Assembly: GCA_019750465.1 (NCBI GenBank)
Contig: JAIEOP010000050.1
Location: 2,529 to 66,528, forward strand
DNA length: 64,000 nucleotides
Direction of reading: 5' to 3'
Origin: Acetobacteraceae bacterium
GTDB taxonomy: Bacteria > Pseudomonadota > Alphaproteobacteria > Acetobacterales > Acetobacteraceae
Shown here: piece after piece, positions 13,943-53,036 of the stretch
Layout: each line of letters opens with the position of its first letter
Position numbering within the stretch: position 1 is the first letter of the stretch
Position numbers and translations under genes: made by a program
Notes under the pieces: model-generated
What the model was told of the DNA's origin: nothing
Databases searched by the model: none
What the model saw: only the letters and a program-made list of their open reading frames with translations

Positions 13943-13980
13943 TTGACCTGCCGAACAGGACTGCATCATACTGGTGGGTA
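13943..13980 (+). promoter_or_regulatory. candidate promoter (TTGACC -35, CATACT -10) with box TACTGGTGGGTA (13969-13980)
   Basis: Lies in the divergent BVMO / ABC-permease intergenic region. One of six copies of the TACTnnTG(G/A)GTA-type box found at promoters of the island. Confidence 0.45.
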
Positions 13981-14100
13981 TCACCGCTTGTCCATCAGCT
14001 TCTGGCTGCTGGCGGCCAACATCGCTTCAGGTCAGCGTCGCTCCAGGGAGGAACAGGACGTGTCGCAGCGGTCCGCCGGACATCGCCCGAAGGACATCCT

Positions 14101-14970
14101 GTGTTCGATCTGATCATCGCGCAGGCCGCAAACGGGCTTGTTCTCGGCTTCGTGTTCGTGTTGATCGCCGTCGGCCTGTCCGTCATCTTCGGCCTGCTCG
14201 GCATCGTCAACTTCGCGCATGGTGCCTTCTTCGCGCTCGGCGCCTACTTCGCGGTGACACTGCATGCGCAGTTCGGCTGGCCTGCCGTGGTCCTGGCGCC
14301 GATCGGCGTCGGCCTGGTAGGTGCCCTGGTCGAGGTGACGTTGATCCGCCGCCTCTATGGGCGGGAACCGCTGACGGTCATCGTCCTCACCTTCGCCCTC
14401 GCGCTGTTCATCGAGGCGGTCATACGACTGGTCTGGGGCAGCGGCAGCCATCCCTTCGCGGTGCCTCCCTTCCTGCGCGGCATCGTGGAGTTCGGCCCGG
14501 TGCTGATCACGCAGTACCGCGCCGCCGTGGTGGTGGTGACGGTCGCGCTGCTGGTGTTGCTCGGGATGTTCCTGGGCTTCACGCCCTATGGGCGCATCCT
14601 GCGCGCCGGCTCGCGTGACCCGGAGATGGTCGGGCTGCTCGGCATCAACTTCCCCCGCGTGCTGACCTGGGCGTTCGGACTAGGCTGCCTGCTGGCGGGG
14701 ACGGCGGGCGTGCTGGCGGCGCCGCTCTGGAGCGTGACGCCTTCCATGGCGGCGGGTGCGATCATGCCGGCCTTCGTCGTTGTCACCATCGGTGGCCTCG
14801 GCTCCTATCCCGGCGCGATCGTGGCGGGGCTGCTGGTCGGCGTCGTGACCGGTCTTGCCGCGCAGTTCTGGCCGGAAGCCTCCTCGGCGGCGATGTACAT
14901 GCTGATGGTGCTGGTGCTGCTGCTGCGTCCACGCGGCCTGCTCGGCGAGCGGTGGGAGCGCTTCGAGTGA
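14101..14970 (+). CDS. branched-chain amino acid (HAAT family) ABC transporter permease, LivH-like
   Basis: GTG at 14101 gives 'VFDLIIAQAANGLVLGFVFVLIAVGLSVIFG', the usual LivH-type N-terminus. The protein is polytopic and hydrophobic. Confidence 0.85.
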   Translation: MFDLIIAQAANGLVLGFVFVLIAVGLSVIFGLLGIVNFAHGAFFALGAYFAVTLHAQFGWPAVVLAPIGVGLVGALVEVTLIRRLYGREPLTVIVLTFALALFIEAVIRLVWGSGSHPFAVPPFLRGIVEFGPVLITQYRAAVVVVTVALLVLLGMFLGFTPYGRILRAGSRDPEMVGLLGINFPRVLTWAFGLGCLLAGTAGVLAAPLWSVTPSMAAGAIMPAFVVVTIGGLGSYPGAIVAGLLVGVVTGLAAQFWPEASSAAMYMLMVLVLLLRPRGLLGERWERFE

Positions 14971-17486
14971 GGCGCGCCATCCGAAGTCCCGTCCTCTGGA
15001 CCGCGATCGTGTTCGCGGCGATGACCACCGCCGCCCTTGTCCTTGGTGCGCCGGTGGGGCGCATCACGCAAATCGCCATCTACGTGCTCTACGGCGCGGG
15101 CGTGAACCTGCTGATCGCCTATACGGGCCTGGTCCCCTTCGGCGCATCGGTCTTCTTCGGCTGCGGCACCTATGCCGCCGCGTTGTTCATGCTCCATGTC
15201 GCAGGCAACGAGCTTGCGGGGCTTGTCTTCGCGCTGGTCTGGTCGGTGGTCAGCGGCGCGCTGCTCGGGCTCGTCGTGCTGCGGCGGCGTGGCCTCTACT
15301 TCTCGCTCCTCACGCTCGCCGCCTCGCAGATCGCCTTCGAGGTCGTGTTCCGCTGGACATCCTTCACCGGCGGCGAGAACGGGCTGCAGAATGTGCCCCG
15401 GCCGCTGTTCCCGACTGCGATCTCCTTCCATCTTTTCACGCTCGCCGTGCTGCTGGCGTCGCTCTGGGCGATCTGGCGGATGGTCCATTCGCCCTACGGC
15501 CGCGCGCTGCAGGCGATCCGGGACAACGAGCAGCGCATGTCGAGCCTCGGCTACGACACATGGCGCCTGAAGCTCGGCGCCTTCACGCTCTCGGGCGCCT
15601 TCGTCGGCGTGGCGGGCGGGCTGCTCGCGCAGCTTCTGCAGGGCGCCTACGCGAACAACCTGAGCTGGCAGCATGCCGGCGACGCGCTGCTGATGGTAGT
15701 CCTGGGCGGCGTGCACCATTCGCTCGGCGCGTTGTGGGGCGCATCGGTCTTCATCCTGCTCGAGGATTTCCTGAGCGCGCGACTGGAGAACTGGTGGCTG
15801 GTCTTCGCACCGGCCATCATCGTCTTCGCACTGGTCGCGCCGGAGGGGCTGCACGGCCTGTTCCGCCGCGGCTTCGGCCGCTCCGGCTGGACGCTGGTGC
15901 GCCGGGACATTCCCGCACGTCCCGCCGCGATCCGCCCCTTTGCCGCCGGCGACGGGCAGGGGCTCGGCGAGGACCCGGTGCTGACGGTGCGCGGCCTGAG
16001 CAAGGCGTTCGGATCGCTCAGCGTGGCGCAGCAGCTCGATTTCGAGGTTGCTCCGCGCCGCCTGCACAGCATCATCGGGCCGAACGGCGCGGGGAAGACG
16101 ACGCTGTTCAACATGCTGACCGGCATCCTGCAGCCGGATGCCGGCGAGATCCGCTTCTTGGGCATGGACATCACGCGGATGCCGGTGCATCGGCGCGTCC
16201 AGCTCGGCCTCGGCCGGTCCTTCCAGATCGTCAGCGTCTTCCCGAACCTCTCCGTCTTCGAGAATGTCCGCATCGCCGTCCAGGCGCGAAACCCGCAGCG
16301 CCACGCGATCTGGCGCGATGCGCACGGGATCCCGGCGGTGAATGAGCGGACCTGGTCGCTGCTGGCGGCGGTCGGCCTCGACCACCGCGCCGAAGCGGGC
16401 TGCGCGAACCTGGCGCATGGCGAGCGCCGCCTGCTCGACATCGCGGTCACGCTGGCGACCGACGCGCAGCTGCTCCTTCTTGACGAACCTCTGGCAGGCC
16501 TCGGGGAGGCCGATCGCATCACCGTCTCGCGGCTGATCCGCAAGCTGGCGGACAGCCATGCCGTGCTGCTGATCGAGCACGATCTGGACCGCGTCGTCGC
16601 GCTGTCCGACCGGATCACCGTGCTGCACCAGGGACGCCTGATCGCCGATGGCGAGCCGGCGGAGATCGTGCGGGAACCGGCCGTCGTCGCCGCTTATCTC
16701 GGCACGGCGGGCACGTCCATGCCGGCACCCGCGCCAAGGCCGCTTGCCGCGCCGGCGATCGCCGCCGCTTCCGGGCCGCTGCTGCGCGTCGAGGGGCTCG
16801 TCGCCGGGTATGGCGGCAGCAAGGTGCTCGACTCCGTGGACCTGACGGTCGAGCCGGGCGAGGCGGTCGCCGTGCTCGGGCGCAACGGCGTGGGCAAGAC
16901 GACCCTGCTGCGCTCCCTGACGGGCACGATCCCGGTCACGGCCGGCGACGTCGTCTTCGACGGCGCGTCGATCGCGGGCCAGCGGCCGTTCGTGATCAAC
17001 CGTCGCGGCGTCGCCTTGGTGCCGGAGGGACGGCGGCTGTTTCCCAACCTCACCGTCGTCGAGAACCTGCGCATCGCCGCGCGCCCGGGCGGCGCGACGC
17101 TCGACGAGGTCTACGACCTGTTTCCGCGGCTGAAGGAGCGCGCGCGCCAGCGAGCCGAGAGCCTCTCGGGCGGCGAGCGGCAGATGTGCGCGGTGGCGCG
17201 CGCCCTCATGGCGCCGAGCCGGCTCGTGCTGCTCGACGAGCCGTTCGAGGGCCTGGCCCCGGCGGTGGTCGCGGAGCTCTCGGCGGCCGTGGCGCGCCTG
17301 CGTGGGGAGCGCGCGGTTGTGCTCGTCGAGCACCAGGCGGAAAAGCTTCTGCCCCTCGTGGATCGGGCCTACGTCCTGGTCAATGGCCGCGTCGCCTTCG
17401 CCGGCAGCAGCGCATCGCTTGCGGCCGACCACGCGCTGCAGGCTCGCCTGCTCGGGATGGTGGAAGCGGACGCCGCGCCGGCCTGA
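14967..17486 (+). CDS. triple-fusion ABC protein: LivM-like permease plus LivG-like ATPase plus LivF-like ATPase
   Basis: One uninterrupted ORF. The first 330 aa or so are hydrophobic. Two full ATPase cassettes follow, with Walker A 'GPNGAGKTTLFNMLTG' and 'GRNGVGKTTLLRSLTG' and signatures 'LAHGERRLLDIA' and 'LSGGERQMCAVA'. GTG at 14967 overlaps the upstream stop. Confidence 0.8.
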   Translation: MRRAIRSPVLWTAIVFAAMTTAALVLGAPVGRITQIAIYVLYGAGVNLLIAYTGLVPFGASVFFGCGTYAAALFMLHVAGNELAGLVFALVWSVVSGALLGLVVLRRRGLYFSLLTLAASQIAFEVVFRWTSFTGGENGLQNVPRPLFPTAISFHLFTLAVLLASLWAIWRMVHSPYGRALQAIRDNEQRMSSLGYDTWRLKLGAFTLSGAFVGVAGGLLAQLLQGAYANNLSWQHAGDALLMVVLGGVHHSLGALWGASVFILLEDFLSARLENWWLVFAPAIIVFALVAPEGLHGLFRRGFGRSGWTLVRRDIPARPAAIRPFAAGDGQGLGEDPVLTVRGLSKAFGSLSVAQQLDFEVAPRRLHSIIGPNGAGKTTLFNMLTGILQPDAGEIRFLGMDITRMPVHRRVQLGLGRSFQIVSVFPNLSVFENVRIAVQARNPQRHAIWRDAHGIPAVNERTWSLLAAVGLDHRAEAGCANLAHGERRLLDIAVTLATDAQLLLLDEPLAGLGEADRITVSRLIRKLADSHAVLLIEHDLDRVVALSDRITVLHQGRLIADGEPAEIVREPAVVAAYLGTAGTSMPAPAPRPLAAPAIAAASGPLLRVEGLVAGYGGSKVLDSVDLTVEPGEAVAVLGRNGVGKTTLLRSLTGTIPVTAGDVVFDGASIAGQRPFVINRRGVALVPEGRRLFPNLTVVENLRIAARPGGATLDEVYDLFPRLKERARQRAESLSGGERQMCAVARALMAPSRLVLLDEPFEGLAPAVVAELSAAVARLRGERAVVLVEHQAEKLLPLVDRAYVLVNGRVAFAGSSASLAADHALQARLLGMVEADAAPA

Positions 17487-17518
17487 TGCAACACGCAACG
17501 AGACAAGGAGGAACCCAG

Positions 17519-18763
17519 ATGCACACCAACCACATATCGGTCAGCCACACTGCGCGCACCACGCGGCGCGGCCTGCTGCTCGCCTCGGGCTTCACGGCAG
17601 CCGGGCTCGCGCTGCCGGCGCTTGCGCAATCGGGGGAGCCGATCAAGCTCGGCATCGTCTTCCCGAAGCAGGGCACCTTCGCCCAACTCGGCGAGGGCGC
17701 GGCCAATGCGGCGGTGCTGACGCTGGAGATGGCCGGCGGCCGCATCCTCGGGCGGCCGGCGCAGACGACCTGGCTCGACGAGCCGAACCCGCAAACCGCG
17801 CAGCAGAACATGCAGAAGCTGGTGGACGAGGAGAAGGTCGCGGCCGTGCTCGGCGGGGCGAGCGGCGCCACCGCACTCGCGCTCTCGGCCCTCGCGCGCC
17901 GGACGAAGACGCCGCTAATCACGATCAGCGGTGCCGCGGTGCTGACCGGCAAGGACTGCAACCGCTACACCTTCCGCTCCAATGCGCCCGCGCCCGTGGC
18001 GGTCAGCGCGATCACGCCGGCGATGCTGGAGCGCGGCAAGCGCTGGTACTTCCTCATCACCGACTATGCGTATGGCCACGACGTCTACAATGCCTTCAAG
18101 GCGGCACTGGACGCGGCGGGCGGCACGCAGGTGGGCTACGACCGGATGCCCCTGGGCACGACCGATTTCAGCGCCTTCATCTTGAAGATCCGCCAGGCGC
18201 GTCCGGATGTGGTCGCCACCGCGCTGTCGGGCAACGAACTGCCGACCTTCCTGAAGCAGTATGCCGAGTTCGGCATGCGCAACGGCGCACCGGTCGTCAG
18301 CCCGATCATCACGGACACCGACAACGTCGCCGCCGGCCCGCAGGCGTCGGGCCTCTACGGCAAGGTCTGGCATCATTCCGATCCGAACAACTCGCCGGAG
18401 GACCGCGCCTTCACCGAGGCGTATCGCCGCAAGCACGGCGTGCCGCCGCATTCGAATGCGCTGCTCGCCGCCGTCTCCATGCGGCTGCTGCTGGCGGCGA
18501 TCCAGCAGGCGGGCTCCACCAGCCCGGAGGCTATCGTGCGCGGGCTGGAGACGGTGCGGCTGCAGGACGGCGCCTTTCCGCTCTACTTCCGCGAATGGGA
18601 CCACCAGCTCATGCGGCGGATCCTGGTCCTGCGCGTGCGCAACCAGGTCACCGATCTCTGGGATGCGCTTGAGATCGTCAAGCAGGTGCCCGAGACACCG
18701 GCGGGGCTTGATGCGCTCTATGGCACGCAGGCGCAGAGCGAGTGCCGCCTAGGCGAGGTCTGA
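17519..18763 (+). CDS. ABC transporter substrate-binding protein (LivK-like, type I periplasmic binding fold)
   Basis: ATG at 17519 is preceded by AAGGAGG. The signal region is 'RRGLLLASGFTAAGLALPALAQ', and the mature start 'PIKLGIVFPKQG' is typical. Confidence 0.85.
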   Translation: MHTNHISVSHTARTTRRGLLLASGFTAAGLALPALAQSGEPIKLGIVFPKQGTFAQLGEGAANAAVLTLEMAGGRILGRPAQTTWLDEPNPQTAQQNMQKLVDEEKVAAVLGGASGATALALSALARRTKTPLITISGAAVLTGKDCNRYTFRSNAPAPVAVSAITPAMLERGKRWYFLITDYAYGHDVYNAFKAALDAAGGTQVGYDRMPLGTTDFSAFILKIRQARPDVVATALSGNELPTFLKQYAEFGMRNGAPVVSPIITDTDNVAAGPQASGLYGKVWHHSDPNNSPEDRAFTEAYRRKHGVPPHSNALLAAVSMRLLLAAIQQAGSTSPEAIVRGLETVRLQDGAFPLYFREWDHQLMRRILVLRVRNQVTDLWDALEIVKQVPETPAGLDALYGTQAQSECRLGEV

Positions 18764-18780
18764 GCGGCAGCGCGACAGGG

Positions 18781-19560
18781 ATGATGCCGATGTACGACCT
18801 GGATGGCCGCACCGCGCTGGTCACCGGGGGCGGCGCGGGAATCGGCCGCGCGATCGCCTTGCGGCTGGCGGCGGAAGGTTGCGACATCGGCATCCTCGAC
18901 CTCGACCTTGCCGGCGCGGAGGCCACAGCGGCGGAGGCGCGGGCGCTCGGGCGGGCCGCGCATGCCGCGTCGGGCAACGTCGGAGAGCGGGCCTCGGCGG
19001 AAGCCGCCGTCGCGGCGCTCTCGGCGGCGCTCGGGCGCGTGGACATCCTGGTCAACAATGCCGGGATCCTGCGCACCTCGCCCTTCCTCGAGACGACGGA
19101 TGCGGAGTGGCGCGGCACCTTTGCCGTGAACCTCGACGGCGCCTTCCATTGCTGCCAGGCCGTGCTGCCGGGAATGGTGGCGCGGCGGGCCGGCGCGGTC
19201 GTCAACGTGGCGTCCTGGACCGGCAAGAAGGGCGTGCCGAACCACGCGGCCTACAGCGCCAGCAAGTTCGCGCTGATCGGCCTGACGCAGGCGATCGCAG
19301 GCGAGATGGCGGCACACGGCATCCGCGTGAACGCCGTCTGCCCCGGCATCATCGTCGAGACGCGGATGCGGGAGGAGGCGGAGGAGCGCAACCGCGCCCA
19401 GGGCTTGCCCGATGTCGCGACGCGCCTGGCGTCCATCCCGCTCCGGCGCGCCGGCTACCCCGAGGATGTCGCGAACCTCGTGGCCTTCCTGGCCTCGGAC
19501 CAGGCGGCTTACATGACCGGGCAAGCGGTCAACGTGACGGGTGGGCTCTGGATGGGCTGA
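18781..19560 (+). CDS. SDR-family oxidoreductase (FabG-like)
   Basis: 'ALVTGGGAGIGRA', 'NNAG' and the catalytic 'YSASKFAL' motif. Confidence 0.85.
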   Translation: MMPMYDLDGRTALVTGGGAGIGRAIALRLAAEGCDIGILDLDLAGAEATAAEARALGRAAHAASGNVGERASAEAAVAALSAALGRVDILVNNAGILRTSPFLETTDAEWRGTFAVNLDGAFHCCQAVLPGMVARRAGAVVNVASWTGKKGVPNHAAYSASKFALIGLTQAIAGEMAAHGIRVNAVCPGIIVETRMREEAEERNRAQGLPDVATRLASIPLRRAGYPEDVANLVAFLASDQAAYMTGQAVNVTGGLWMG

Positions 19561-19567
19561 CGGCGGC

Positions 19568-19604
19568 TTGCATTCTGACGGGACGTAAGTGATACTTGTG
19601 AGTA
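19568..19604 (+). promoter_or_regulatory. candidate promoter (TTGCAT, 17 nt, GATACT) with box TACTTGTGAGTA (19593-19604)
   Basis: Lies upstream of the first Bug/TctC gene. Box copy 2 of 6. Confidence 0.45.
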
Positions 19605-19643
19605 AGGCTGCGGCACGGACCCGCAGCCATCCGGAGGATCGCC

Positions 19644-20639
19644 ATGAATGCCAAGCTGAGCCGGCGCGTCGCGCTGGGCGTTGCGCTGCTCCCCCTGCTG
19701 GCGCGGCCCGGGCTTGCGCAAGGTGCCGCCTGGCGGCCCAACCGCCCGGTCCGCATGGTGGTGCCAACCGCCGCGGCCGGCGCGAACGACGTGATGGCGC
19801 GCATCGCCGCGCAGCACCTCGCATCCCGTCTCGGCCAGCCCGTCGTGGTGGACAACAAGGCTGGTGCCGGCGGCACGATCGGCACGATGGACGTGGTGCG
19901 CTCGCCGCCCGATGGCCACACGCTGCTGATGGGCAACATCGGCGCGCAGAGCATCGCCTATTCGCTGGCGCGCAACATGCCCTATGGGCCGGAAGACCTG
20001 CTGCCGGTCACCAACATGTTCACCACGCCGCATGTGCTGGTGGTGCATCCCGCGGTCCCGGCGACGACCGTGCCGGAATTCGTCGCGCTGCTGCGTGCCA
20101 ACCCCGAAAAGTACAGCAACGGCACGCCGGGGATCGGCCAGTCGCCGCATCTTGCCGCCGTGTGGTTCAACCAGATCGCGCAGACGAAGACCGTGGCGGT
20201 GCACTACCGCGGCACCGCGCCGGCGAACACGGACCTGATGGCGGGCAACGTCCAATTCGTCTTCGACCTGATCGCCAACCACGTGGAGGCCATCCGTGTC
20301 GGCCGCGTACGCGCGCTTGCGGTGACCGGCGAGGAGCGCAGCCCCCTGATGCCGGAGCTGCCGACGATGCGCGAGGCGATGCCGGAGTTCGCCAACTTCT
20401 CCACGGGCAGCTGGATCGGCCTGTTGGTACCCAAGGGCACGCCGGAGGAGGTGATCCGCACCCTGAACGCGGAGATGAAGGATCTGCTAACCTCGCCCGA
20501 GACCGCGCAGCGCTTTCTCGCCCTCGGCGGCAAGCCGGACTACGGGACGCCCGACCAGTTCGGCGCCTTCCTGCGCCGCGAGATCGCGAAATGGGCCGAG
20601 GTGATACAGCGCGAGGGGCTGCAGGTAGACCTCACCTGA
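19644..20639 (+). CDS. Bug/TctC-family tripartite tricarboxylate transporter substrate-binding protein
   Basis: Signal peptide, then 'RPVRMVVPTAAAGANDVMARI' and 'VVDNKAGAGGTIG', which are typical Bug-family motifs. Confidence 0.85.
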   Translation: MNAKLSRRVALGVALLPLLARPGLAQGAAWRPNRPVRMVVPTAAAGANDVMARIAAQHLASRLGQPVVVDNKAGAGGTIGTMDVVRSPPDGHTLLMGNIGAQSIAYSLARNMPYGPEDLLPVTNMFTTPHVLVVHPAVPATTVPEFVALLRANPEKYSNGTPGIGQSPHLAAVWFNQIAQTKTVAVHYRGTAPANTDLMAGNVQFVFDLIANHVEAIRVGRVRALAVTGEERSPLMPELPTMREAMPEFANFSTGSWIGLLVPKGTPEEVIRTLNAEMKDLLTSPETAQRFLALGGKPDYGTPDQFGAFLRREIAKWAEVIQREGLQVDLT

Positions 20640-21807: not shown

Positions 21808-21838
21808 GGCTGACGGCAAGGACCGGGGAGAGCGCGCG

Positions 21839-22882: not shown

Positions 22883-22887
22883 CGCCC

Positions 22888-26042: not shown

Positions 26043-26045
26043 CGG

Positions 26046-38571: not shown

Positions 38572-38573
38572 GC

Positions 38574-42284: not shown

Positions 42285-42285
42285 C

Positions 42286-44285: not shown

Positions 44286-45157
44286 AGCACGGCCACCGGG
44301 GTGAGCGGACTGCCGGTCGCGCCCGTCAGCGGCAGCGCCGCGGCCATGAAGAGGAACGCTGTCGCTCCGGCCTCGGCCAGCGGCTTGAGCTGCATGCCTT
44401 CGAGCAGGGGCATGCCATGGTCGCGCAGCAGGCGCTGGTGCACCGGAAAGACCTGGCCGGCCGGGAAGGGGAGGACCTCGATGGCGAAGTTGTCTGCGCC
44501 CACGAGAGCGACGTCGGCCTCGGCCAGCCACAGCGCGCCGTCCTCGTCGAGGCCGGGCTCCGTGTCGAAGGAGATCAGGCGGTTCGGCTTCCCCTGCTGC
44601 GCCTCCAGCCAGCCCGTGCGCAGCAGCACCGCGTCGCCGCTCTCCGGCGTGACACCCGCGCGGGCAGCGGCCGATTGGAGTGCCGCGCGGCCGATCGGCG
44701 TGCCGTCCGGCAGCGGCCCGTCCACCGCAAGGTCGAGCAGGATGCCGCGGGTGACCAGTGGGGGCAGCTTCTCCACGCCAAGCCGCTGCGCGCCTGTGGT
44801 GCTGCGCAGCGTGCTGCCGGGAAAGCCGTTGTAGAGCTGGTCGTCGCACCAGGCGTGGCAGAGCGCGTCCACATGCGTGCCGAGATGCAGCGGCAGCACG
44901 ACCGTGTCCTCGGCGAACTGGAAGCCGCCGGGCCGCTTCGCCCCAGCCGCGTAGTCGCCGCCATCGCGGCCCATGAAGTGCATCATCGGTGCGCGGTGAT
45001 GCGGGATCGGTGTCGTCGCGTGCAGAGGCTGGGCGAGCGGGATCACGCGGCCGCTGCGCACCAGCCCGGCCGCGCGCCGCACCTGCTCGGGACCGGCGAG
45101 GTTCGGCGCGCCGACCTCGTCCTGCTCGCCCCAGCGTCCCCAGCCCTCGCGCGCCAT
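44282..45157 (-). CDS. cyclase-family protein (kynurenine formamidase-like metal hydrolase)
   Basis: ATG at 45157. The 'LHLGTHVDALCHAW' motif (HxGTHxDxxxH) is present. Confidence 0.75.
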   Translation of the reverse strand: MAREGWGRWGEQDEVGAPNLAGPEQVRRAAGLVRSGRVIPLAQPLHATTPIPHHRAPMMHFMGRDGGDYAAGAKRPGGFQFAEDTVVLPLHLGTHVDALCHAWCDDQLYNGFPGSTLRSTTGAQRLGVEKLPPLVTRGILLDLAVDGPLPDGTPIGRAALQSAAARAGVTPESGDAVLLRTGWLEAQQGKPNRLISFDTEPGLDEDGALWLAEADVALVGADNFAIEVLPFPAGQVFPVHQRLLRDHGMPLLEGMQLKPLAEAGATAFLFMAAALPLTGATGSPLTPVAVL

Positions 45158-45161
45158 CCGC

Positions 45162-46880
45162 TCAGCCCTTCGCGGACGGCAACGCGGCCGCCTCGTCCTT
45201 GAGCGAGCGACGCAGCAGCTTGCCGGTGACGGTGGTTGGAAGCGCCTCCCGGATTTCGATCCGGTCCGGCACCTTGTAGGCCGAGGCGATGCTGCGGCAA
45301 TGCGCAACCAGGTCCTGCGCCACGAGCTTCGCATCCGGCTTCGGCACGACGAAGGCGACGATGAGTTCGCCCTTCTCCCTGTCGGGCACGCCGACGACGG
45401 CGACCTGGGACACGGCGGGGTGCTGCAGCAGCGCATCCTCCACCTCGGCGGGCGAGACGTTGATGCCCGAACGCTTGATCATCTCGCCGCTGCGCCCGAG
45501 GAACTGCACGTAGCCTTCCGCGTCGAGCTGGCCGATGTCGCCGGTGCGGAACCAGCCATCCGGCGTGAAGACCGCCGCGTTGTGCTCGGCGCTCGCGCCG
45601 CCGTAGCCGCGCATGAGGTAGCCGGTCACCTCGATCAGCCCGGGCTGGCCGTGCCCGAGCTGCTGCCCGCTCTCCGGGTCGATGATCCGCAGCTGCACGC
45701 CGGGCAGCGGCGGACCCTGGCAGGTGCTGCGCAGCTCGAGCGGCCAATCATGCGGTGTGACGCAGCAATTCCCGTAGGTCTCGCTCGACCCGTAGATGTT
45801 GCTGATCTGCGCGGCCCCGAGCCCTTCCGCCGCGCTTGCCACGTCCTGCGGCGAGCCAATGGTCAGCCCCTTCCTCAGGCTCCGCGTGCGCTCGGGCCGG
45901 AACTCCGGGTGGCGGATCAGCGCGGCCGTCATCGCCGGCAGCGTGTAGATCGCGGTGCAGCGGTGGCGCTCGATCAGGTCGAGCGCTTCGCCCGCTTCGA
46001 ACCGGGACTGCAGCACCAGCGCCGCGCCATGGCCGAAGGTGGCCGGCAGCGCATTGACGGCGCCATAGGCCCAGAAGAGCGGGATGGCGGCGAGCACGCG
46101 ATCATCCGGCAGCAGTCCCTGGCGCTCGCCGATGTTGAAGCCGTTCTCGACGATGCCGTGCTGTACGAGCCGCACGGCCTTGGGCTTGCTGGTGGAGCCC
46201 GAGGTGTAGAGCACGATCCCGTCGTCGCCCGCGCCCGCGGCCTCGCCGGGCGGCAGTGCCGGCATGTCCGGCTCATCGGCGAGCAGCGCTTCGTAGTCGC
46301 GCCAGCCGGCCGGAGCGGGGCCGCCGACCATGACCAACTCCCGCAACGCGGGAAAGCGGGTGGACTGCCAGGTCCCGTCGTGCGTTGCTTCCGGCACCAG
46401 CGCGGCGAGGCTGGCGCAAAAATCCTCCTTCCCGAAGGCGGGCACGGCGAACAGGGTACGGACGCCAGAATCGGCCAGCAGGAAGTCCAGCTCCTGGCGC
46501 GTCGACCAGGTGCTGAAGGGGATGACGGTCGCGCCCGCAGCCGAGGCGCCGAACAGCGCTTCGAGGAACTCCGTCCGGTTGCCCATCAGGATGCCGACGC
46601 GCTCGCCGTGCCGCAGGCCGCCGGCGCGCAACGCCGCGGCGACCGCGCGGGCGCGGCGTGCGAGCCCCGCGTAGGTCACCGACCGGCCGGCGCATAGGAC
46701 AGCGAGCGCATCCGGGCGGAGGGCCGCCTGCTCCTCCAGCAGGTCGTGCAGCGTGCGGGCGAAGGGCGCGCGCATGGATCTCAGCCTGTCCTGCCGGACT
46801 GCCGCGATGCGCCGTTCCAAGTCGTGCTTCGCATCGTTTCCTTCCCTCACCGCCGTTCCGCGAGATCGGCGGAAGCTCAT
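45162..46880 (-). CDS. AMP-forming acyl-CoA synthetase / class I adenylate-forming enzyme
   Basis: 'LYTSGSTSKPKAV', 'YGSSETYG' and 'FRTGDIG'. The likely real start is ATG at 46775 ('MRAPFARTLHDLLEEQAA'). Confidence 0.85.
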   Translation of the reverse strand: MSFRRSRGTAVREGNDAKHDLERRIAAVRQDRLRSMRAPFARTLHDLLEEQAALRPDALAVLCAGRSVTYAGLARRARAVAAALRAGGLRHGERVGILMGNRTEFLEALFGASAAGATVIPFSTWSTRQELDFLLADSGVRTLFAVPAFGKEDFCASLAALVPEATHDGTWQSTRFPALRELVMVGGPAPAGWRDYEALLADEPDMPALPPGEAAGAGDDGIVLYTSGSTSKPKAVRLVQHGIVENGFNIGERQGLLPDDRVLAAIPLFWAYGAVNALPATFGHGAALVLQSRFEAGEALDLIERHRCTAIYTLPAMTAALIRHPEFRPERTRSLRKGLTIGSPQDVASAAEGLGAAQISNIYGSSETYGNCCVTPHDWPLELRSTCQGPPLPGVQLRIIDPESGQQLGHGQPGLIEVTGYLMRGYGGASAEHNAAVFTPDGWFRTGDIGQLDAEGYVQFLGRSGEMIKRSGINVSPAEVEDALLQHPAVSQVAVVGVPDREKGELIVAFVVPKPDAKLVAQDLVAHCRSIASAYKVPDRIEIREALPTTVTGKLLRRSLKDEAAALPSAKG

Positions 46881-46893
46881 GCGTTCTTGAACC

Positions 46894-46929
46894 TACTGAA
46901 CAGTAGCTTCCATTCCCCACCGGTGGCAA
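46894..46929 (-). promoter_or_regulatory. candidate promoter (minus strand TTGCCA, 16 nt, GCTACT) with palindromic box variant CTACTG-TT-CAGTAG (46893-46906)
   Basis: Lies upstream of the 19-gene minus-strand run. Box copy 4 of 6 (a TAC-N6-GTA core variant). Confidence 0.4.
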
Positions 46930-46965
46930 GCGCTAAAACGCCACATCCCGATGGCGTGTGCGGCG

Positions 46966-48129
46966 CTAGCTGCGCTCGCCCGCAGCGCCGACGCCGAATT
47001 CCCGCAGCACCTCCTCCGTGTGCTCGCCGAGGCGCGGGGGCAGGCGGCGGATGGAGGGGGGCGTCGAACGCAGACCGAGTGGGCTCGCCGGCAGCCGGAG
47101 CATCCCTTCCGTCGCGTGGCGGTGCATCTCCCAGAACCCGGTCGCGACCAGATGCGGGTCATCGAGCAGATCCTCGAGATCCTGCACGGCGGCAACGGGG
47201 ATGTCGGCGGCAAGCAGGATTGCGCTCCAATCCGCCGTGGCGCGGACCAGCAGCAGCGACGCGACCGTCGCCCAGACCTCGTCGAGATGCGACTGCCGCC
47301 CGGCGAGCGTCGCCCAGGCAGGATCCGCGGCGAGGTCGCCGCGCCCGGCGATCTCGAGGAAGCGCTTCCAGTGCGCATCGGTGTAGGGCAGCAGGCAGAT
47401 CCAGCCATCTGCCGTGCGGAAGGGCCGCCGCAGGCCCTTGCGGATCGGCGTGTACCCCATTTCGCCGGCGGGCGGCTCGAAGATGCAGCCGCCCAGGTGC
47501 TCGGCCGCGGTGAAGGCGACCAGCGTCTCCAGCATCGGGACCTTCACGAGCTGGCCGAGGCCGCTCCGCTCGCGGTGGAACAGGGCGACGGTGATGGCCA
47601 GCGCGGCATGCACTGCGGCGACCTTGTCGCCGATGATGGACGGGACGTACCGCGGCTCGCCGGCGGCCACCTTCTGCAGCATCGCCAGGCCAGAGAGCGC
47701 CTGTACAATGTCGTCATAGGCCGGCCGGCCGCCATAGGGGCCTTCCTCGGCGAAGCCTGTCGCGTGGCATAGCACAAGCCGCGGGTTCACCGCCGAAAGC
47801 CGGTCCCAGGAAAGCCCCAGCCGGTCGGCGGCCGGCGTGCGGATCGAGTGCAGCAGCACGTCGCTGAGCGCCGCCATCCCGAGCAGCGTCGCCCGGCTGT
47901 CGGCGTCCTTCAGGTCGAGGACGACGCTGCGCTTGTTCCGGTTGTTGGCCATGAACAGCGCGCCCATGCCCTCGTGCCGGCGCGGCCCGATGGAGCGCGT
48001 GATGTCGCCTTCCGGCGCCTCGACCTTGATGACGTCGGCACCCAGATCCCCGAGGTACTGTGCCGTCATCGGCCCGAGGATGACGGAGGAGAGGTCGAGG
48101 ACGCGGATGCCGTCCAGGGCGCCGGTCAT
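46966..48129 (-). CDS. family III CoA-transferase (CaiB/BaiF family)
   Basis: 'GIRVLDLSSVILGPMTAQYLGDLGADVIKVEAPEGD'. Confidence 0.85.
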   Translation of the reverse strand: MTGALDGIRVLDLSSVILGPMTAQYLGDLGADVIKVEAPEGDITRSIGPRRHEGMGALFMANNRNKRSVVLDLKDADSRATLLGMAALSDVLLHSIRTPAADRLGLSWDRLSAVNPRLVLCHATGFAEEGPYGGRPAYDDIVQALSGLAMLQKVAAGEPRYVPSIIGDKVAAVHAALAITVALFHRERSGLGQLVKVPMLETLVAFTAAEHLGGCIFEPPAGEMGYTPIRKGLRRPFRTADGWICLLPYTDAHWKRFLEIAGRGDLAADPAWATLAGRQSHLDEVWATVASLLLVRATADWSAILLAADIPVAAVQDLEDLLDDPHLVATGFWEMHRHATEGMLRLPASPLGLRSTPPSIRRLPPRLGEHTEEVLREFGVGAAGERS

Positions 48130-48289
48130 GGTGCCCGCCCCAGGACGGGGGCGGGTGCCCGGGTTGCGAAGCCTAGCCAGCGATCGTCCTGAGCGTGCTC
48201 GCCGCAGGCGGGCATATGAAGGACGTGAATCGCCGGGCCAAGGATGGCTGCACGCGGATGGGCCTGACGACCGTCAGGGCAATCCGGGT

Positions 48290-48979
48290 TTAGCTGCGCC
48301 GGGCCGGCCGCTTCGCGGCGACCGCCCGGGTCCGCGCGGGACGCGGCGCCGGCACGGCGGCTGCCTGCGCCTGCACCATCGTCAGCAACAGGCGCGACAT
48401 CTCCTCGGCGAGATCCGGGAGAGCGAGGCGTCCGTTCGGGCGGTACCAGACATAGGCCCAGCTCACCATGCCGCCGATCGCCAGCGCCGCCAGGCGCGCA
48501 TCGGCGATCCGGAACTCGCCGGATCTCACGCCCTCCTCGAGCAGGGCGGACAGCTTGTGGTCGAAGTCCCGTCGCATGTCGCTGATTCGCTTGAAGTCCT
48601 GCGGCAGTAGGTTCTTCTCCTCGCGTGCAAAGATCGCAATGTGCTTCTGGCTCTCCAGCACCGCGGTGACGAACCGGCGGCCGAGCTCGGCCAGCTTGCC
48701 CGTCGGCGGGCGATCGAGCGCCAGCACGCCGTTCATCGCCTGCAGCGCCGAGGCTATGCCGCGTGAGCAGATCTCGGCCAGCAGCTCGCTCTTGGAGGTG
48801 AAATGGGCGTAGATGAAGGGCTTGGTGACGCCGAGCCGCTCCGCGACCGAATCGAGCGTCGTGTTCTCGTAGCCGCGATCGTAGAAGAGCTCGACCGCTG
48901 CGGCGATCGTCCGCTCGCGTTTCAGGGTCGCAACTTCGTCCCGGATACCCAGCATGGGGGCGCTCATGATCGTCGCCAT
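48290..48979 (-). CDS. TetR/AcrR-family transcriptional regulator
   Basis: The N-terminal HTH region 'ERTIAAAVELFYDRGYENTTLDSVAERLGVTKPFIYAHFTSKSELL'. Confidence 0.85.
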   Translation of the reverse strand: MATIMSAPMLGIRDEVATLKRERTIAAAVELFYDRGYENTTLDSVAERLGVTKPFIYAHFTSKSELLAEICSRGIASALQAMNGVLALDRPPTGKLAELGRRFVTAVLESQKHIAIFAREEKNLLPQDFKRISDMRRDFDHKLSALLEEGVRSGEFRIADARLAALAIGGMVSWAYVWYRPNGRLALPDLAEEMSRLLLTMVQAQAAAVPAPRPARTRAVAAKRPARRS

Positions 48980-49084
48980 CTTCGGTTGTCTTGGCCTTTA
49001 TGCTGCGAGGTAGAATCGCATACCGAGTAGCACGGTCTGCGACCGGACTCCACCCAGAAGCGTCAAGAGGTCTGTCCCTTCCCG

Positions 49085-50251
49085 TCACGGCGCTGGTCGC
49101 CGTGCATTACCGGGCAGCATGTCGCGCGAGATGATCTCCTTCATCACCTCCACGCTGCCGCCACCGATCCGGCCGAGCCTGGCGTCCACGAAGGCCCGGG
49201 CGATCGGGAACTCCCACATGTAGCCCCAGCCGCCGAAGAGCTGCAGGCACTGGTCCATGACGCGCCCCTGCAGCTCCGTCGTCGTGAGCTTCAGCATCGC
49301 CGCGTCCACGGCAGTGAGCTGCCGTTCGAGGTGAAGCTCGATGCAGCGGTCTAGGAAGACGCGCTGCGCCAGCGTGTCGGCCCGCATCTCCGCCAGCTTG
49401 AAACGGGTGTTCTGGAAATCGGCGAGCGTCTGACCGAACATCTTCCGCTGCACGGCGTAGTCCAGCGTCCACTCCAGCGCCGCTTCCGCCGAGGCGACCG
49501 CGCGGATCCCCTGCACCAGCCGTTCCTGCGGCAATTCCTGCATGAGCTGGTAGAAGCCGCGCCCCTCCTGCCCGAGCAGGTTCGAGACAGGGACACGCAT
49601 GTCCTGGAAGAACAGCTCGGACGTGTCCTGCGCCTTGCAGCCGATCTTCTCGAGCTTGCGGCCGCGCGTGAAGCCGGGCCGGTCGGTCTCGACCAGCAGC
49701 AGGCTGACGCCCTTCGCGCCCGCCTTCGGGTCGGTCTTGCAGGCCAGCACTAGCAGATCGGCGTTGTGGCCGGAGGTGATGAAGACCTTCTGGCCGTTCA
49801 CCACATACTCGTCCCCGTCACGGATCGCGGTGGTCTTGATCGCGGCCAGGTCGCTGCCGCCGGACGGCTCGCTCATGCCGAGCGCTGTGATGACCTCGCC
49901 GCGTGCCATCGCCGGCAGCCAGCGCTGCTTCTGCGCCTCCGTCCCGTAATGGACGAGATAGGGCGAGATGATCTCGGAATGCAGATAGAAGGTCGGGCCC
50001 GTGGCGCCGGCGCGCGCCATCTCCTCGACCATGATCGCGCCGAACAGGAAGTCGCCGCCGGCGCCGCCATACTCCTCCGGCACGCCCGTGCAGAGAAAGC
50101 CGGCGGCTCCGGCCTTGAGCCAGAGATCCCGCGGGACGATGCCGGCCTTCTCCCATTCGCCGTGGAGCGGCGTGATCTCCTCCGCGATGAAGCGCCGGAT
50201 GGAGTCGCGGAAGATCTCGTGCTCGGGGTGGAAGAGCGTGCGGGGGATCAC
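49085..50251 (-). CDS. acyl-CoA dehydrogenase
   Basis: GTG at 50251. Motifs 'GVPEEYGGAG', 'LGMSEPSGGSDLA' and the C-terminal 'FGGWGYMWEFPIARAFVDAR'. Confidence 0.85.
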   Translation of the reverse strand: MIPRTLFHPEHEIFRDSIRRFIAEEITPLHGEWEKAGIVPRDLWLKAGAAGFLCTGVPEEYGGAGGDFLFGAIMVEEMARAGATGPTFYLHSEIISPYLVHYGTEAQKQRWLPAMARGEVITALGMSEPSGGSDLAAIKTTAIRDGDEYVVNGQKVFITSGHNADLLVLACKTDPKAGAKGVSLLLVETDRPGFTRGRKLEKIGCKAQDTSELFFQDMRVPVSNLLGQEGRGFYQLMQELPQERLVQGIRAVASAEAALEWTLDYAVQRKMFGQTLADFQNTRFKLAEMRADTLAQRVFLDRCIELHLERQLTAVDAAMLKLTTTELQGRVMDQCLQLFGGWGYMWEFPIARAFVDARLGRIGGGSVEVMKEIISRDMLPGNARRPAP

Positions 50252-50295
50252 GGGGCCTGGCGTTCCTCGTCTGGCTGCCAAATGGCATCGCAAGT

Positions 50296-50332
50296 TACCC
50301 ACAAGTAAACATTCAGTCGCGCGGGAATGCAA
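50296..50332 (-). promoter_or_regulatory. candidate promoter (minus strand TTGCAT, 17 nt, TTTACT) with box TACTTGTGGGTA (50296-50307)
   Basis: Lies 45 nt upstream of the acyl-CoA dehydrogenase start. Box copy 5 of 6. Confidence 0.45.
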
Positions 50333-50368
50333 GTCCGCTGAGCGCCCCTTCGCGGACAGTTGGCGGGA

Positions 50369-51154
50369 CTAGGCGAATCCGGGCCTCCGCCGTGCGCGGA
50401 AGGCGGCCAGCCCTTCCGTCGCATCGGGGCCGAGCAGAAGCGGCAGCGCCTCGGCCGCCTCCTGCCGCAGCCCTTCGTCGAGCGGCATGGCAAGGCTGAC
50501 TCGTGCCAGGCGTTTCATCGCGGCGAGCCCCGCGGCACTGCGCGTGGCGAGGTCAGCGCAGCACGCCGCCGCCACCGCGTCCAATGCGTCCGGCTCGACC
50601 ACGCGGGATACGAGGCCCCAGGAGGCCGCCTCCTCCGCCCCGATCCAGCGGCCGGTCAGCATCAGGTCGAGGGCGCGGCGCAGTCCGGCCAGCCGCGGCA
50701 GGCGTTGGCTGCCACCCCAGGCCGGCACTAGGCCGAAGCGGGCGTGCTGGTCGCCAAAGCGCGCCTCGCGCGACGCGATCACGATGTCGCAGCCCATTAC
50801 GAGTTCGAGCCCGCCGGCCAGGCAGAGGCCGCGCACCGCGGCGACGACCGGCAGCGCGCTCGCTTCCAGCGCGGCAAGCAGCTCGTGTCCTTCCGCCAGG
50901 AACGCGGCGAGAGCCTTCGGGTCCTGCCGCAGCGCCGCAAAGGCGTCGAGGTCGACGCCGGTGCAGAATGCGTCGCCCTGCGCGCGGATGAGCACCGAGC
51001 GCAGCGCAGGGTCGGCTTCGAAGCGACGGAGCCCGGCGCGCAGCGCGGCGCGATCGGCCGGCCGCAGCGCGTTCTGGCGGGACGGCCGGGCGAGCTCCAT
51101 CACGCCCGTCGCACCTTCGGTCCGAACGACAATGCCGGGATCGTCCGATGTCAT
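50369..51154 (-). CDS. enoyl-CoA hydratase/isomerase family protein
   Basis: ATG at 51154 ('MTSDDPGIVVRTEG'), then 'GDAFCTGVDLD' and 'GLCLAGGLELVMGCD'. Confidence 0.8.
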   Translation of the reverse strand: MTSDDPGIVVRTEGATGVMELARPSRQNALRPADRAALRAGLRRFEADPALRSVLIRAQGDAFCTGVDLDAFAALRQDPKALAAFLAEGHELLAALEASALPVVAAVRGLCLAGGLELVMGCDIVIASREARFGDQHARFGLVPAWGGSQRLPRLAGLRRALDLMLTGRWIGAEEAASWGLVSRVVEPDALDAVAAACCADLATRSAAGLAAMKRLARVSLAMPLDEGLRQEAAEALPLLLGPDATEGLAAFRARRRPGFA

Positions 51155-51275
51155 TGCATTTTGGCTCCATCGAGGCTCGTGCCACCCATGGCTGCGGACC
51201 GCGTCGCTTGCGGCCTTTCGGAGGCTTCGCGTAGGTTGCGCTCGGCACGGCAACAAGCGGGAGTGACGGCAACGC

Positions 51276-52451
51276 ATGCCGGGGCCCATCAGCGGCAAGG
51301 TTTCGATCGTCGGCATCGGCCAGAGCGAGTTCGGCCGCTTTCTGCCAGACAGCCAGCTCGGCCTCGGCGCGAAGGCGCTGCGGGCAGCGCTTGCCGATGC
51401 GGGGCTCGAGCGGTCGGATATCGACGGGTTGTCGCTCCACATGGGCTGGCCGCTCGGCGCGGATTACGACCGCATCGCGGAGGTCTATGGGCTCGAGGTG
51501 GATTACGTCCACCAGGCCTGGACACATGGCCGCTTCGTGACCAGCACCCTGCAGCACGCCGCCATGGCGATTGCCACTGGCATGGCGCAGGTCGTGGCCT
51601 GCATCACCGCGATCTGCTTCACGCGCGAACGCCAGATCCTCGGCGGTCCCGGCGACCACGAGGGCATGCGCGAGCAAGGCGCCACGCATGGCGAGAACCC
51701 GGTCTTCGGACTGACCTCTCCGGCGGCCGGCGCGGCCTTCGCGATGCAGCGCTACATGGCGGATTACGGTGTCACCAGCGCCGAGCTCGCCGCGGTGCCG
51801 GTCGCGCTGCGGCGGCACGCGCTGCTGAACCCGCATGCCCTGATGAAGACGCCGCTGACGCTCGAGGCCCACCAGGCCTCCCGGATGATCGTCGATCCGC
51901 TGCGGTTGTTCGACTGCTCGCTCGTGACCGATGGCGCGGTGGTCGTGCTGCTGGCCAGCGCGGACCGCGCCCGCGACCTGCGCCAGCGCCCGGTGCAGAT
52001 CGCAGGCATGCAGGGCATCCGTTCCGGGCGAAGCGAGTTCATCTTCGCGCCGCCCAACCTCGGCATCAACCAGCAGCCCGTGGCGCGGGTGACCCCGCGG
52101 GAGCGGGACATGGCAGTCTACCGCATGGCAGGGATCGACCGCGCCGCGATCCAGGGCTTCTACACCTACGACGCCTTCTCCCCGCTGGTGCTGTTCGCGC
52201 TGGAACGCTTCGGCTTCTGCGGCCCCGGCGAGGCCGCGCGGTGGGTGCAGGACGGCCGCATCGGCCCCGGCGGCGACCTGCCGGTAAACACCTCGGGCGG
52301 GCTGCTGTCGGAAGCGCATGTCTGCGGATGGAACTCGATCGCCGAGATGGTCCGGCAGCTTCGCGGCGAGGCCGGGTCCCGGCAGATACCCAGCGCGTCC
52401 TGCCTGCAATGGGGGACGTGCTGGGGCGATTCGGTCATCCTTCGATGCTGA
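51276..52451 (+). CDS. thiolase-fold protein, lipid-transfer (Ltp)-like, apparently Cys-less
   Basis: 'KVSIVGIGQSEFGR' and the C-terminal 'NTSGGLLSEAHVCGWNSIAEMVRQLRGEAG'. I see no C(A/G)SG nucleophile motif. Confidence 0.8.
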   Translation: MPGPISGKVSIVGIGQSEFGRFLPDSQLGLGAKALRAALADAGLERSDIDGLSLHMGWPLGADYDRIAEVYGLEVDYVHQAWTHGRFVTSTLQHAAMAIATGMAQVVACITAICFTRERQILGGPGDHEGMREQGATHGENPVFGLTSPAAGAAFAMQRYMADYGVTSAELAAVPVALRRHALLNPHALMKTPLTLEAHQASRMIVDPLRLFDCSLVTDGAVVVLLASADRARDLRQRPVQIAGMQGIRSGRSEFIFAPPNLGINQQPVARVTPRERDMAVYRMAGIDRAAIQGFYTYDAFSPLVLFALERFGFCGPGEAARWVQDGRIGPGGDLPVNTSGGLLSEAHVCGWNSIAEMVRQLRGEAGSRQIPSASCLQWGTCWGDSVILRC

Positions 52452-52461
52452 GCACGCCGCA

Positions 52462-52893
52462 ATGATGGACCCGAGCCACCCGACCGCGAAGCCGCTGCCA
52501 CGGATCACGTCCGACAACGGCCCCTTCTGGGAGGCCTGTCGCCGGCACGAGTTGCTGCTTCCCTGGTGCGATGCCTGCGAGCGTTCGCATTGGCCACCGG
52601 GCCCGGTCTGCCCCTTCTGCTTCGGCGTGCGCACCGCATGGCGAAGTGCGTCCGGGCGGGGGCGGATCTCGTCCTGGGTGGTCGTCCACAAGGAGTGGCT
52701 TCCCGCCTTCCGAGACGACCTGCCCTACAACGCGGTCCAGGTCGAGTTGGAGGAGGGCGTGCGGCTGACCGGCAACGTCGTCGGCGTTCCGAACGAGGCG
52801 CTGCGCGTCGGCCTCCCGGTCGAAGTGGTGTTCGACGACGTGACCGAGACCGCGACACTTCCTCGCTTCCGACCGACCGACGCAGCCGTCTAA
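52462..52893 (+). CDS. DUF35 zinc-ribbon/OB-fold protein
   Basis: ATG at 52462. The zinc ribbon 'CDACERSHWPPGPVCPFC' is followed by an OB-fold region. Confidence 0.8.
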   Translation: MMDPSHPTAKPLPRITSDNGPFWEACRRHELLLPWCDACERSHWPPGPVCPFCFGVRTAWRSASGRGRISSWVVVHKEWLPAFRDDLPYNAVQVELEEGVRLTGNVVGVPNEALRVGLPVEVVFDDVTETATLPRFRPTDAAV

Positions 52894-53001
52894 TCCCGGC
52901 GCCGCAGGCCAGAGGTTCCTCGCCTCGGCCTTTGCTGCCTGCCCGGTCCGATCGGTTCCGTCCCGTCAGCTGCACGGCATTGTCACGCTCTCGGGAGAGC
53001 C

Positions 53002-53036
53002 TTGACGAGCTGTCTGCCGATATATACTGATGGGTA
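53002..53036 (+). promoter_or_regulatory. candidate promoter (TTGACG, 15 nt, TATACT) with box TACTGATGGGTA (53025-53036)
   Basis: An AT-rich patch stands out in GC-rich DNA, 116 nt upstream of the FMO start. Box copy 6 of 6. Confidence 0.45.

Follow-up and report, generated by a model that had tools for sequence, protein, structure and literature searches.

A recurrent 12-base box as the probable operator of a TetR-family repressor in a 43-kb catabolic island of an Acetobacteraceae bacterium

The subject of this study is a 12-base box, TACTNNTGRGTA, that recurs at the heads of transcription units in a 43-kb catabolic island of an Acetobacteraceae bacterium, together with the TetR-family regulator encoded in the same island. 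The DNA analysed, which we call the window, is a stretch of 64,000 nucleotides (nt) of contig JAIEOP010000050.1 (assembly GCA_019750465.1, positions 2,529 to 66,528 of the forward strand) with a G+C content of 69%. Searching the literature for the motif strings and for TetR/Baeyer-Villiger monooxygenase (BVMO) regulons returned only AibR, DarR and PfmR, plus an unrelated LysX motif. AibR of Myxococcus xanthus (PDB 5K7F, 5K7H, 5K7Z) recognises the operator ACCTACCGGTCGGTAGGT, whose core TACCGGTCGGTA is a TAC-N6-GTA dyad; in the AibR-DNA complex Lys47 contacts G12 and G13 and Tyr51 stacks on T14, which corresponds to the GGTA half-site, and the protein binds DNA only with isovaleryl-CoA present (PMC5389471). 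DarR is a repressor that binds ATACT-N4-AGTAT as a dimer of dimers, a conserved Lys reading the G opposite the C of TAC, with sites in its own promoter and in that of an acyl-CoA ligase gene; cyclic AMP (cAMP) and cyclic di-AMP (c-di-AMP) enhance its DNA binding, and Gly45 was reported to be essential (PMC10636190). PfmR (TTHB023) of Thermus thermophilus is an autoregulated TetR repressor with the consensus TACCGACCGNTNGGTN, and the operon that it controls encodes acyl-CoA dehydrogenases, an acyl-CoA ligase and reductases (PMC7022988).

A wider circle of comparison is formed by KstR2, Bacillus FadR and MbdR, which were also among the PDB matches of the window regulator. As is proposed for the system described here, they combine a TetR gene located within a cluster for CoA-dependent catabolism with palindromes on more than one promoter and with a CoA thioester as the effector, but the operator sequences and spacings differ. 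The KstR2 operator is AnCAAGnnCTTGnT and that of MbdR is ATAC-N10-GTAT. FadP and LiuQ, which have TetR regulons in RegPrecise, are described as confined to Betaproteobacteria (PMC5343134), whereas the group of the window TetR spans Alpha- and Betaproteobacteria.

Our goal was to place the box and its candidate regulator among these systems, and our main finding is that the box is probably the operator of the island's own TetR-family repressor. Judged by its mechanism and its membership, as far as both can be read from the sequences, it belongs with the TetR operator systems of the DarR/AibR type. The TetR gene lies inside the cluster, the palindrome sits on predicted promoters at six sites, and a site is found upstream of the regulator's own gene or operon. 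Two further features place it in the DarR/AibR/PfmR-like subgroup, namely the significant homology of the regulator and the TAC-N6-GTA core. The claim in the original prediction of one regulon with TetR as the candidate regulator is supported by the enrichment of the box in related loci and by the operators of the homologues, and we keep it as a probable reading.

The source annotation, which belongs to a metagenome-assembled genome, names the regulator only as a 'TetR/AcrR family transcriptional regulator'. Its best PDB matches in a phmmer search were 3dcf, 3vpr, 2iai, AibR (5k7f) and DarR (8suk), with E-values of 6.9e-21 for 3vpr (a Thermus TetR, the second best match), 1.7e-15 for AibR and 4.2e-13 for DarR. 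The recognition helix VTKPFIYAHF is exact in 63 of 80 orthologues and has one to three differences in the rest, the Lys and Tyr being kept in every case. The window residues TKPFIY align with TKAGLY of AibR, so that the counterparts of Lys47 and Tyr51 are retained. AibR also resembles the window protein in its TetR_C_24-type ligand domain, where five of the six CoA-contacting residues are conserved or similar (Lys131/132 become Arg-Arg, Trp169 and Tyr171 are kept and Lys175 becomes Arg). It differs in its ligand-dependent DNA binding, its biosynthetic operon, its 18-bp operator and its switch residue His114, which is not conserved and aligns with an Arg in the window protein.

DarR is likewise a homologous regulator, with an operator that matches (A)TACY-N4-RGTA(T). 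However, it is an actinobacterial protein (Mycobacterium smegmatis / Rhodococcus; PDB 8SUK, 8SVA, 8SVD) with a small regulon, its two dimers touch on one 20-bp site of overlapping palindromes where the window has separate boxes 20 bp apart, and it binds c-di-AMP or cAMP at a separate site, with no hint of such a ligand in the window TetR. PfmR shares a similar consensus, an operon of acyl-CoA genes and autoregulation, whereas its consensus is pseudopalindromic with a right half that lacks GTA and its regulon is small.

The repeated 12-base box itself is real. In the window TACTNNTGRGTA is matched exactly five times (boxes 1 to 5 in Table 1, with the match at 24995 on the plus strand) versus 0.00 expected, and none of the 100 dinucleotide-preserving shuffles of the window that served as the control contained a single match. 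The core of the box is a 12-bp imperfect palindrome, TACY-N4-RGTA, and the underlying TAC-N6-GTA dyad occurs seven times versus 0.52 expected, with a shuffle maximum of three. The sixth dyad is box 6, the palindromic variant. The seventh, TACTCTTCCGTA at 59206, lies in a mobile-element flank, has neither a match to the Y/R flanks nor a partner box, and was dropped as a regulon member and probably arose by chance. All six island boxes lie in intergenic gaps, while the non-coding share of the island is 7.3% by the gene list. The six boxes at the heads of transcription units that had been proposed, and the TAC-N6-GTA core common to all of them, were therefore recovered as five exact copies and one variant.

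Some care is needed with gene starts when these positions are judged. The longest open reading frames (ORFs) overrun the likely starts (53044-53152, 46775-46880 and 13912-14101), and this is why some boxes seem to lie inside ORFs. The start of the FMO gene, originally placed at 53044, was corrected to the ATG at 53152, where a Shine-Dalgarno sequence is present and the protein begins with a GxGxxG motif near its N terminus; the protein is 445 amino acids (aa) here and 438 aa in the NCBI model. The AMP-ligase likely starts at the ATG at 46775, as alignments with orthologues begin at ORF residues 29-36, and the ABC permease likely starts at the GTG at 14101. A weight matrix built from the exact dyads was circular and added only the weak 49001 site, and it was replaced by a half-site score and an offset analysis. 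No Rfam family was found across the window, and a reading of the box as an RNA element was given up for this reason; most of the box would not be transcribed anyway.

Conservation in orthologous clusters had been named as a check on the box, and the outcome was favorable. We compared the window TetR protein with one genome per species, which gave 80 related loci (1.24 Mb) in Alpha- and Betaproteobacteria, with TetR identities from 86-87% in Falsiroseomonas down to 52% in Rhodoferax, Polaromonas, Limnohabitans and others. These loci contain 152 copies of TAC-N6-GTA where about 25-30 would be expected, versus 22-41 at other spacings, and 138 of the 152 lie outside the coding regions mapped by tblastn. 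The enrichment of TAC-N5-GTA (67 copies) is an artefact, since this string codes for a conserved YVW in TetR itself. The same gene families are found downstream of the dyads: AMP-ligases (46), BVMOs (32), CoA-transferases (22) and TetR (13), as well as thiolase-like, FMO and acyl-CoA dehydrogenase (ACAD) genes. Upstream of the AMP-ligase orthologues an exact box was present in 26 of 31, and the other five directly follow a TctC-type coding sequence with no intergenic region. Orthologues of the FMO gene in three loci (L012, L014 and L017) also have upstream boxes. Site 1 in locus L001, which belongs to the syntenic close relative Falsiroseomonas sp. HW251, reads TACTCTTCGGTA where the window has TACTGGTGGGTA, keeping TAC and GTA with a different spacer, and the orthologue of box 5 in the same locus is TACTGGCCAGTA. 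Orthologous sites that keep TAC and GTA while the central bases change are the signature of a protein-binding site.

The boxes are not solitary. Using the half-site score, which counts matches at eight defined box positions and has a background probability of 0.0034 per position for at least 6/8, we found a partner scoring at least 6/8 at exactly +/-20 bp from exact boxes in about 40 cases per side in the related loci. Other partner offsets between 12 and 40 gave 0-4 cases each, except for a shoulder at 21, and exact boxes stand 20-21 bp apart in seven cases. All six window boxes have a partner scoring 5 or 6 of 8 (Table 1). In some cases the degenerate partner is placed between the -35 and -10, in others at about +10 to +22, and the 20 bp between boxes correspond to about two helical turns. 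A search of the window for 20-bp tandem pairs returned exactly the six known sites and a new one at 49001-49032, upstream of the TetR gene. In the betaproteobacterial loci L063, L064, L066, L069, L071, L072, L074 and L080 we additionally observed that each divergent BVMO/ligase-like region, some 200 bp long, holds two or three exact boxes; two of them are typically spaced by 20 bp, and another lies about 97-109 bp away. These multi-box regions suggest larger repressor assemblies or looping, to the extent that box positions can indicate this.

The new site bears on the regulator's own control. The TetR gene had been thought to lack a box and to have only GGTA-N8-TACC upstream. That element is indeed present, at 49009-49024, but it forms the conserved interior of two 7/8 boxes in tandem, and the gene moreover belongs to an operon headed by box 5, a point that the original prediction had missed. 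When the ACAD-TetR gap was aligned with those of four orthologous loci, GGTA and TACC proved invariant and the spacers unconserved. The related loci contain 18 copies of GGTA-N8-TACC versus 1-9 at other spacings, 12 of them just upstream of the TetR gene, and in these 12 the right-hand box of the tandem keeps R-G at positions 9-10 in 10-11 cases. No recognisable -35 or -10 accompanies the tandem. We infer that 49001-49032 may represent two adjacent low-affinity boxes with their inner half-sites under selection. A single dimer on GGTA-N8-TACC was considered and rejected, as the half-sites would point the wrong way relative to the dyad and the tandem model fits better.

The position of the boxes relative to predicted promoters gives them a plausible function. 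Predicted -35 and -10 elements were found at all six sites, in keeping with the proposed overlap of the box with a sigma70-like -10 and the start region. The box starts 17-20 nt after a (C)TTGNNN -35 (19 nt at three sites, and 20, 18 and 17 nt at sites 1, 6 and 4), therefore the -10 hexamer, nATACT, ends in the first four bases of the box, which covers about -10 to +2. Between the -35 and nnTACT the spacer measures 15-18 nt, with 17 nt at three sites; the range of 15-17 nt first given for five of the six sites stands after a small correction, the spacer of site 1 being 18 nt. Site 3, which had been left without a -35, has a canonical one on the opposite strand. This disposes of the exception, but also of the rule that the box is always oriented with its downstream gene, as the canonical promoter at site 3 faces the thiamine pyrophosphate (TPP)-enzyme gene. 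Box 3 is also 56 nt upstream of TctC2 (ATG at 25062, plus strand; gene 25062-26042), for which no recognisable -35 of its own was found.

In the related loci TTG is most frequent at 25 nt upstream of the box (33 cases versus a background of about 5, and 62 within 24-26 nt), and in 76% of the TTG-spaced cases the box is directly preceded by an A, which would be the -11 A. Box position 4 is T in 71% of the promoter-proximal halves and the equivalent A is present in 52% of the distal halves, thus the asymmetry of TACT...GGTA is largely a -10 requirement laid over the palindrome. A consensus promoter scan of 46500-53300 detected none of the box promoters because their -10 hexamers are too weak for its rule, and the same scan found no terminator between the ACAD and TetR genes. 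The promoter of the thiolase-like gene (about 51190-51230) reads CTTGCG-N19-TAGGTT and has no dyad. The distal half of the box is therefore no general trait of promoters.

Taken at face value, this arrangement suggests how the switch could work. Two TetR dimers would occupy about 32 bp on the same face of the DNA, and the 20-bp phasing of the tandem boxes is compatible with two dimers although its geometry differs from the overlapping palindromes of DarR. At the seven sites the dimers would block the binding of RNA polymerase or the formation of the open complex. The units under control would be the ABC operon, TctC1, the TPP enzyme (perhaps with TctC2), the FMO gene, the ACAD-TetR-CoA-transferase operon and the long AMP-ligase operon. 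TetR would regulate itself through box 5 and through its proximal tandem, which keeps only the inner half-sites. The repressor would be released by an effector, an intermediate of the pathway. Given the conserved CoA-contacting residues and the neighbouring CoA ligases, CoA-transferases and acyl-CoA dehydrogenases, an acyl-CoA intermediate is predicted as the most likely ligand.

Looking at the possible alternatives helps to judge how far this reading can be trusted. The one that survives best, though we think it unlikely, is that the box is bound by another regulator encoded elsewhere, either a paralogous TetR with the same helix, of the type seen in loci L004-L008, or an unrelated dimeric factor, while the neighbouring TetR has a different or a further target. 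The view of the genome is limited to 64 kb, and VTKPFIYAHF also occurs in TetR copies of a different gene context with no nearby box, so paralogues could compete for the sites. Against this, Rhodoferax-type loci (e.g. L047, L049, L051, L052 and L059) carry exact boxes about 75-120 nt upstream of the TetR start, GGTA-N8-TACC stands upstream of the TetR gene in 12 alphaproteobacterial loci, and the characterised homologues bind the same core. Additionally, a metagenome scan that used the tandem pattern alone recovered a TetR homologue on 7 of 120 contigs, within 150 nt of the site in five of them and with an [ST]KPxxY helix in all seven.

A slightly less likely alternative accepts the window TetR as the protein that binds the boxes, but has it do so in the manner of AibR, only when loaded with an acyl-CoA as a co-repressor, or has it act as an activator, rather than being released by an inducer. 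AibR is a solved homologue with the same operator core and needs isovaleryl-CoA to bind DNA (PMC5389471), and the binding of DarR is enhanced by its nucleotide ligands (PMC10636190). On the other hand, the boxes lie at -10 to +2 of catabolic operons, where release by a substrate would be usual, and the Arg found in place of the AibR switch residue His114 would also speak against the AibR mode. Finally, it is very improbable that the box is a shared core-promoter signature (-10, discriminator and start region) with no dedicated regulator: its coincidence with the -10 end, the fixed distance to the -35 and the T bias of its promoter-proximal half would suit such a signature, but the distal RGTA half has no promoter role and is yet equally conserved and the mirror of the proximal half, partner boxes stand at +/-20 bp on either side, the TetR-proximal tandem lacks promoter elements, the thiolase promoter has no dyad, and betaproteobacterial BVMO/ligase intergenic regions carry exact boxes in tandem.

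We still consider the box to be the probable operator of an inducer-released TetR repressor, but several observations weigh against this reading. As the Lys and Tyr of helix alpha3 recur throughout the TetR family, finding them conserved is weakly specific and no proof. The position of the DarR Gly45 is occupied by Pro in the window TetR and by Ala in AibR. Sites 5 and 6 have -10 hexamers that are weak at position -11, the spacer of site 4 is only 15 nt, and two of the six partner boxes reach only 5/8. The related loci were chosen by the presence of TetR, so the co-occurrence with TetR is not an independent test, and the counts do not represent independent events either, given how many of the sites are orthologous. 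Loci L004-L008 have a TetR of 69-75% identity with the same helix and no box within 10 kb. As AibR needs its ligand for DNA binding, homology does not tell which way the effector response goes.

The searches also returned material that is of interest apart from the operator. Loci L004-L008 have a TctC/short-chain dehydrogenase (SDR) context and share a palindrome, CTGTAT-GGGCT-ATACAG, about 50 nt upstream of TetR (about 9940-9960). Most of the metagenome matches (L085-L199) come from low-GC contigs on which 10-bp units such as TACTGTACGG or TACTAGAAGG are repeated in tandem, and they are unrelated to the operator. The plasmid collection gave only distant matches of 70-77% identity with no synteny.

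Table 1. Predicted operators, promoter elements and principal genes of the catabolic island (window coordinates; promoters and operators are predictions; spacers run from the -35 to nnTACT; partner scores are matches at eight box positions).
Feature	Position	Strand	Sequence	Remarks
Catabolic island	11303..54489	.		43 kb; operon heads carry boxes; Pfam assignments
TetR-family regulator gene	48290..48979	-		229 aa; PF00440 TetR_N (E 5.8e-17), PF17932 TetR_C_24 (E 2.8e-31)
BVMO gene	12259-13884	-		divergent from the box 1 ABC operon
Liv-type ABC operon	~14101-19560	+		downstream of box 1; ends in an SDR gene
Family III CoA-transferase gene	46966-48129	-		same strand, after ACAD and TetR
Box 1	13969..13980	+	TACTGGTGGGTA	exact match; predicted operator, promoter of the ABC-transporter/SDR operon, divergent from the BVMO gene
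Box 1 promoter	-35 13943-13948; -10 13967-13972	+	TTGACC; CATACT	spacer 18 nt
Box 1 partner	13949..13960	+	TGCCGAACAGGA	6/8; 20 bp upstream, between -35 and -10
Box 2	19593..19604	+	TACTTGTGAGTA	exact match; predicted operator, promoter of TctC1 (19644-20639)
Box 2 promoter	-35 19568-19573; -10 19591-19596	+	TTGCAT; GATACT	spacer 17 nt
Box 2 partner	19573-19584	+	TTCTGACGGGAC	5/8; weak
Box 3	24995..25006	-	TACCCATTAGTA (minus-strand reading)	predicted operator, promoter of the TPP-enzyme gene (23292-24950, -)
Box 3 promoter	-35 25026-25031	-	CTTGCAC, N19, TACC	canonical; faces the TPP-enzyme gene
Box 3 partner	25015-25026	-		5/8; weak
Box 4	53025..53036	+	TACTGATGGGTA	exact match; predicted operator, promoter of the FMO gene
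Box 4 promoter	-35 53002-53007; -10 53023-53028	+	TTGACG; TATACT	spacer 15 nt
Box 4 partner	53045-53056	+	TGCCGATGAGTT	6/8
Box 5	50296..50307	-	TACTTGTGGGTA	exact match; predicted operator, promoter of the ACAD (GTG 50251)-TetR-CoA-transferase III operon
Box 5 promoter	-35 50327-50332	-	TTGCAT; TTTACT	spacer 17 nt
Box 5 partner	50276-50287	-	TGCCATTTGGCA	6/8; downstream
Box 6	46894..46905	-	TACTGTTCAGTA	palindromic variant; predicted operator, promoter of the long minus-strand AMP-ligase operon running to ~26807
Box 6 promoter	-35 46924-46929	-	TTGCCA; GCTACT	spacer 16 nt
Box 6 partner	46914-46925	-	CACCGGTGGGGA	6/8
Seventh site (tandem)	49001..49032	-	TGCTACTCGGTA - N8 - TACCTCGCAGCA	7/8 each; 20 bp apart; 22-53 nt upstream of the TetR ATG (48979)

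By Pfam, the island behind these operators encodes an esterase, a BVMO, an SDR, a flavin mononucleotide (FMN)-dependent dehydrogenase, a TPP enzyme, an NMO, a zinc-dependent alcohol dehydrogenase and a cyclase, along with an SMP-30 lactonase-like protein, an AMP-ligase, an ACAD, an enoyl-CoA hydratase (ECH) and an FMO. Transport is represented by two Liv-type ATP-binding cassette (ABC) systems and four TctC receptors, and CoA metabolism by three thiolase-like/DUF35 pairs, a nucleoside diphosphate (NDP)-forming acyl-CoA synthetase and two family III CoA-transferases. No NCBIfam model reaches its curated cut-off for the key island enzymes, which leaves the pathway without a name. Within the island Pfam recognises no regulator other than TetR; the broader claim that it is the only one in the window does not extend to the flank, where a DUF3489/helix-turn-helix (HTH) protein is encoded at 55472-56311. 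The thiolase-like gene (51276-52451) is divergent from the ECH gene here, with a gap at 51151-51275, and in locus L001 it is divergent from the ACAD gene and shares its box. From this comparison of gene order, an ECH gene seems to have been inserted here, parting the thiolase gene from the operator.

Both flanks of the island have the look of mobile elements. The left flank (735-10790) carries mobile-element and defence genes: a DUF2924 protein (735-1388), a large serine recombinase (1385-2737), a ResIII helicase-like protein of 1025 aa (3155-6232), an N6/N4 DNA methylase of 952 aa (6252-9110) and an OLD-family pair of an AAA_15 ATPase and a TOPRIM nuclease (9107-10790). On the right (55472-61911), the DUF3489/HTH gene is followed by a DUF6456 gene (57690-58382) and one for a Toprim/VapE-like primase-helicase of 829 aa (59422-61911). 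The 43-kb island may therefore lie inside or between integrative elements. Upstream of the primase gene, 59125-59300 contains short direct repeats with several GGTCCGGGT-like units, and CATGCGCGATG / CATGCGTGATG repeat units follow the 59206 dyad. These repeats may be iterons or an origin region.

How much of this system is new can be stated only tentatively. In the literature searched we found no description of the regulon, of the tandem phasing or of an autoregulatory site made of inner half-sites. It is possible, at somewhat less than an even chance in our judgement, that we are looking at an undescribed regulon of Alpha- and Betaproteobacteria with 32-bp operators of two boxes in a 20-bp phase, whose own site keeps the inner half-sites only and which governs an unnamed catabolic route. 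This route would combine BVMO/FMO oxygenases, family III CoA-transferases or racemases, and SCP-x thiolase/DUF35 pairs, an enzyme set that may serve alicyclic or methyl-branched ketones and acids. If the inner-half-only site is true, autoregulation would depend on the cooperative binding of two dimers, which is not reported for DarR, AibR or PfmR.

The principle itself, a TetR operator placed on a promoter, is textbook, and the locus is in this sense an ordinary example of a known gene switch. For the 43-kb island the analysis provides a testable regulon map, with seven predicted operators, a candidate repressor and acyl-CoA as the probable class of effector. The same box and the same TetR accompany the same enzyme set in many soil and freshwater Alpha- and Betaproteobacteria. 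As the effector would be an intermediate of the pathway, the repressor/operator pair could give a handle on the pathway substrate, and may be of use as a biosensor part.

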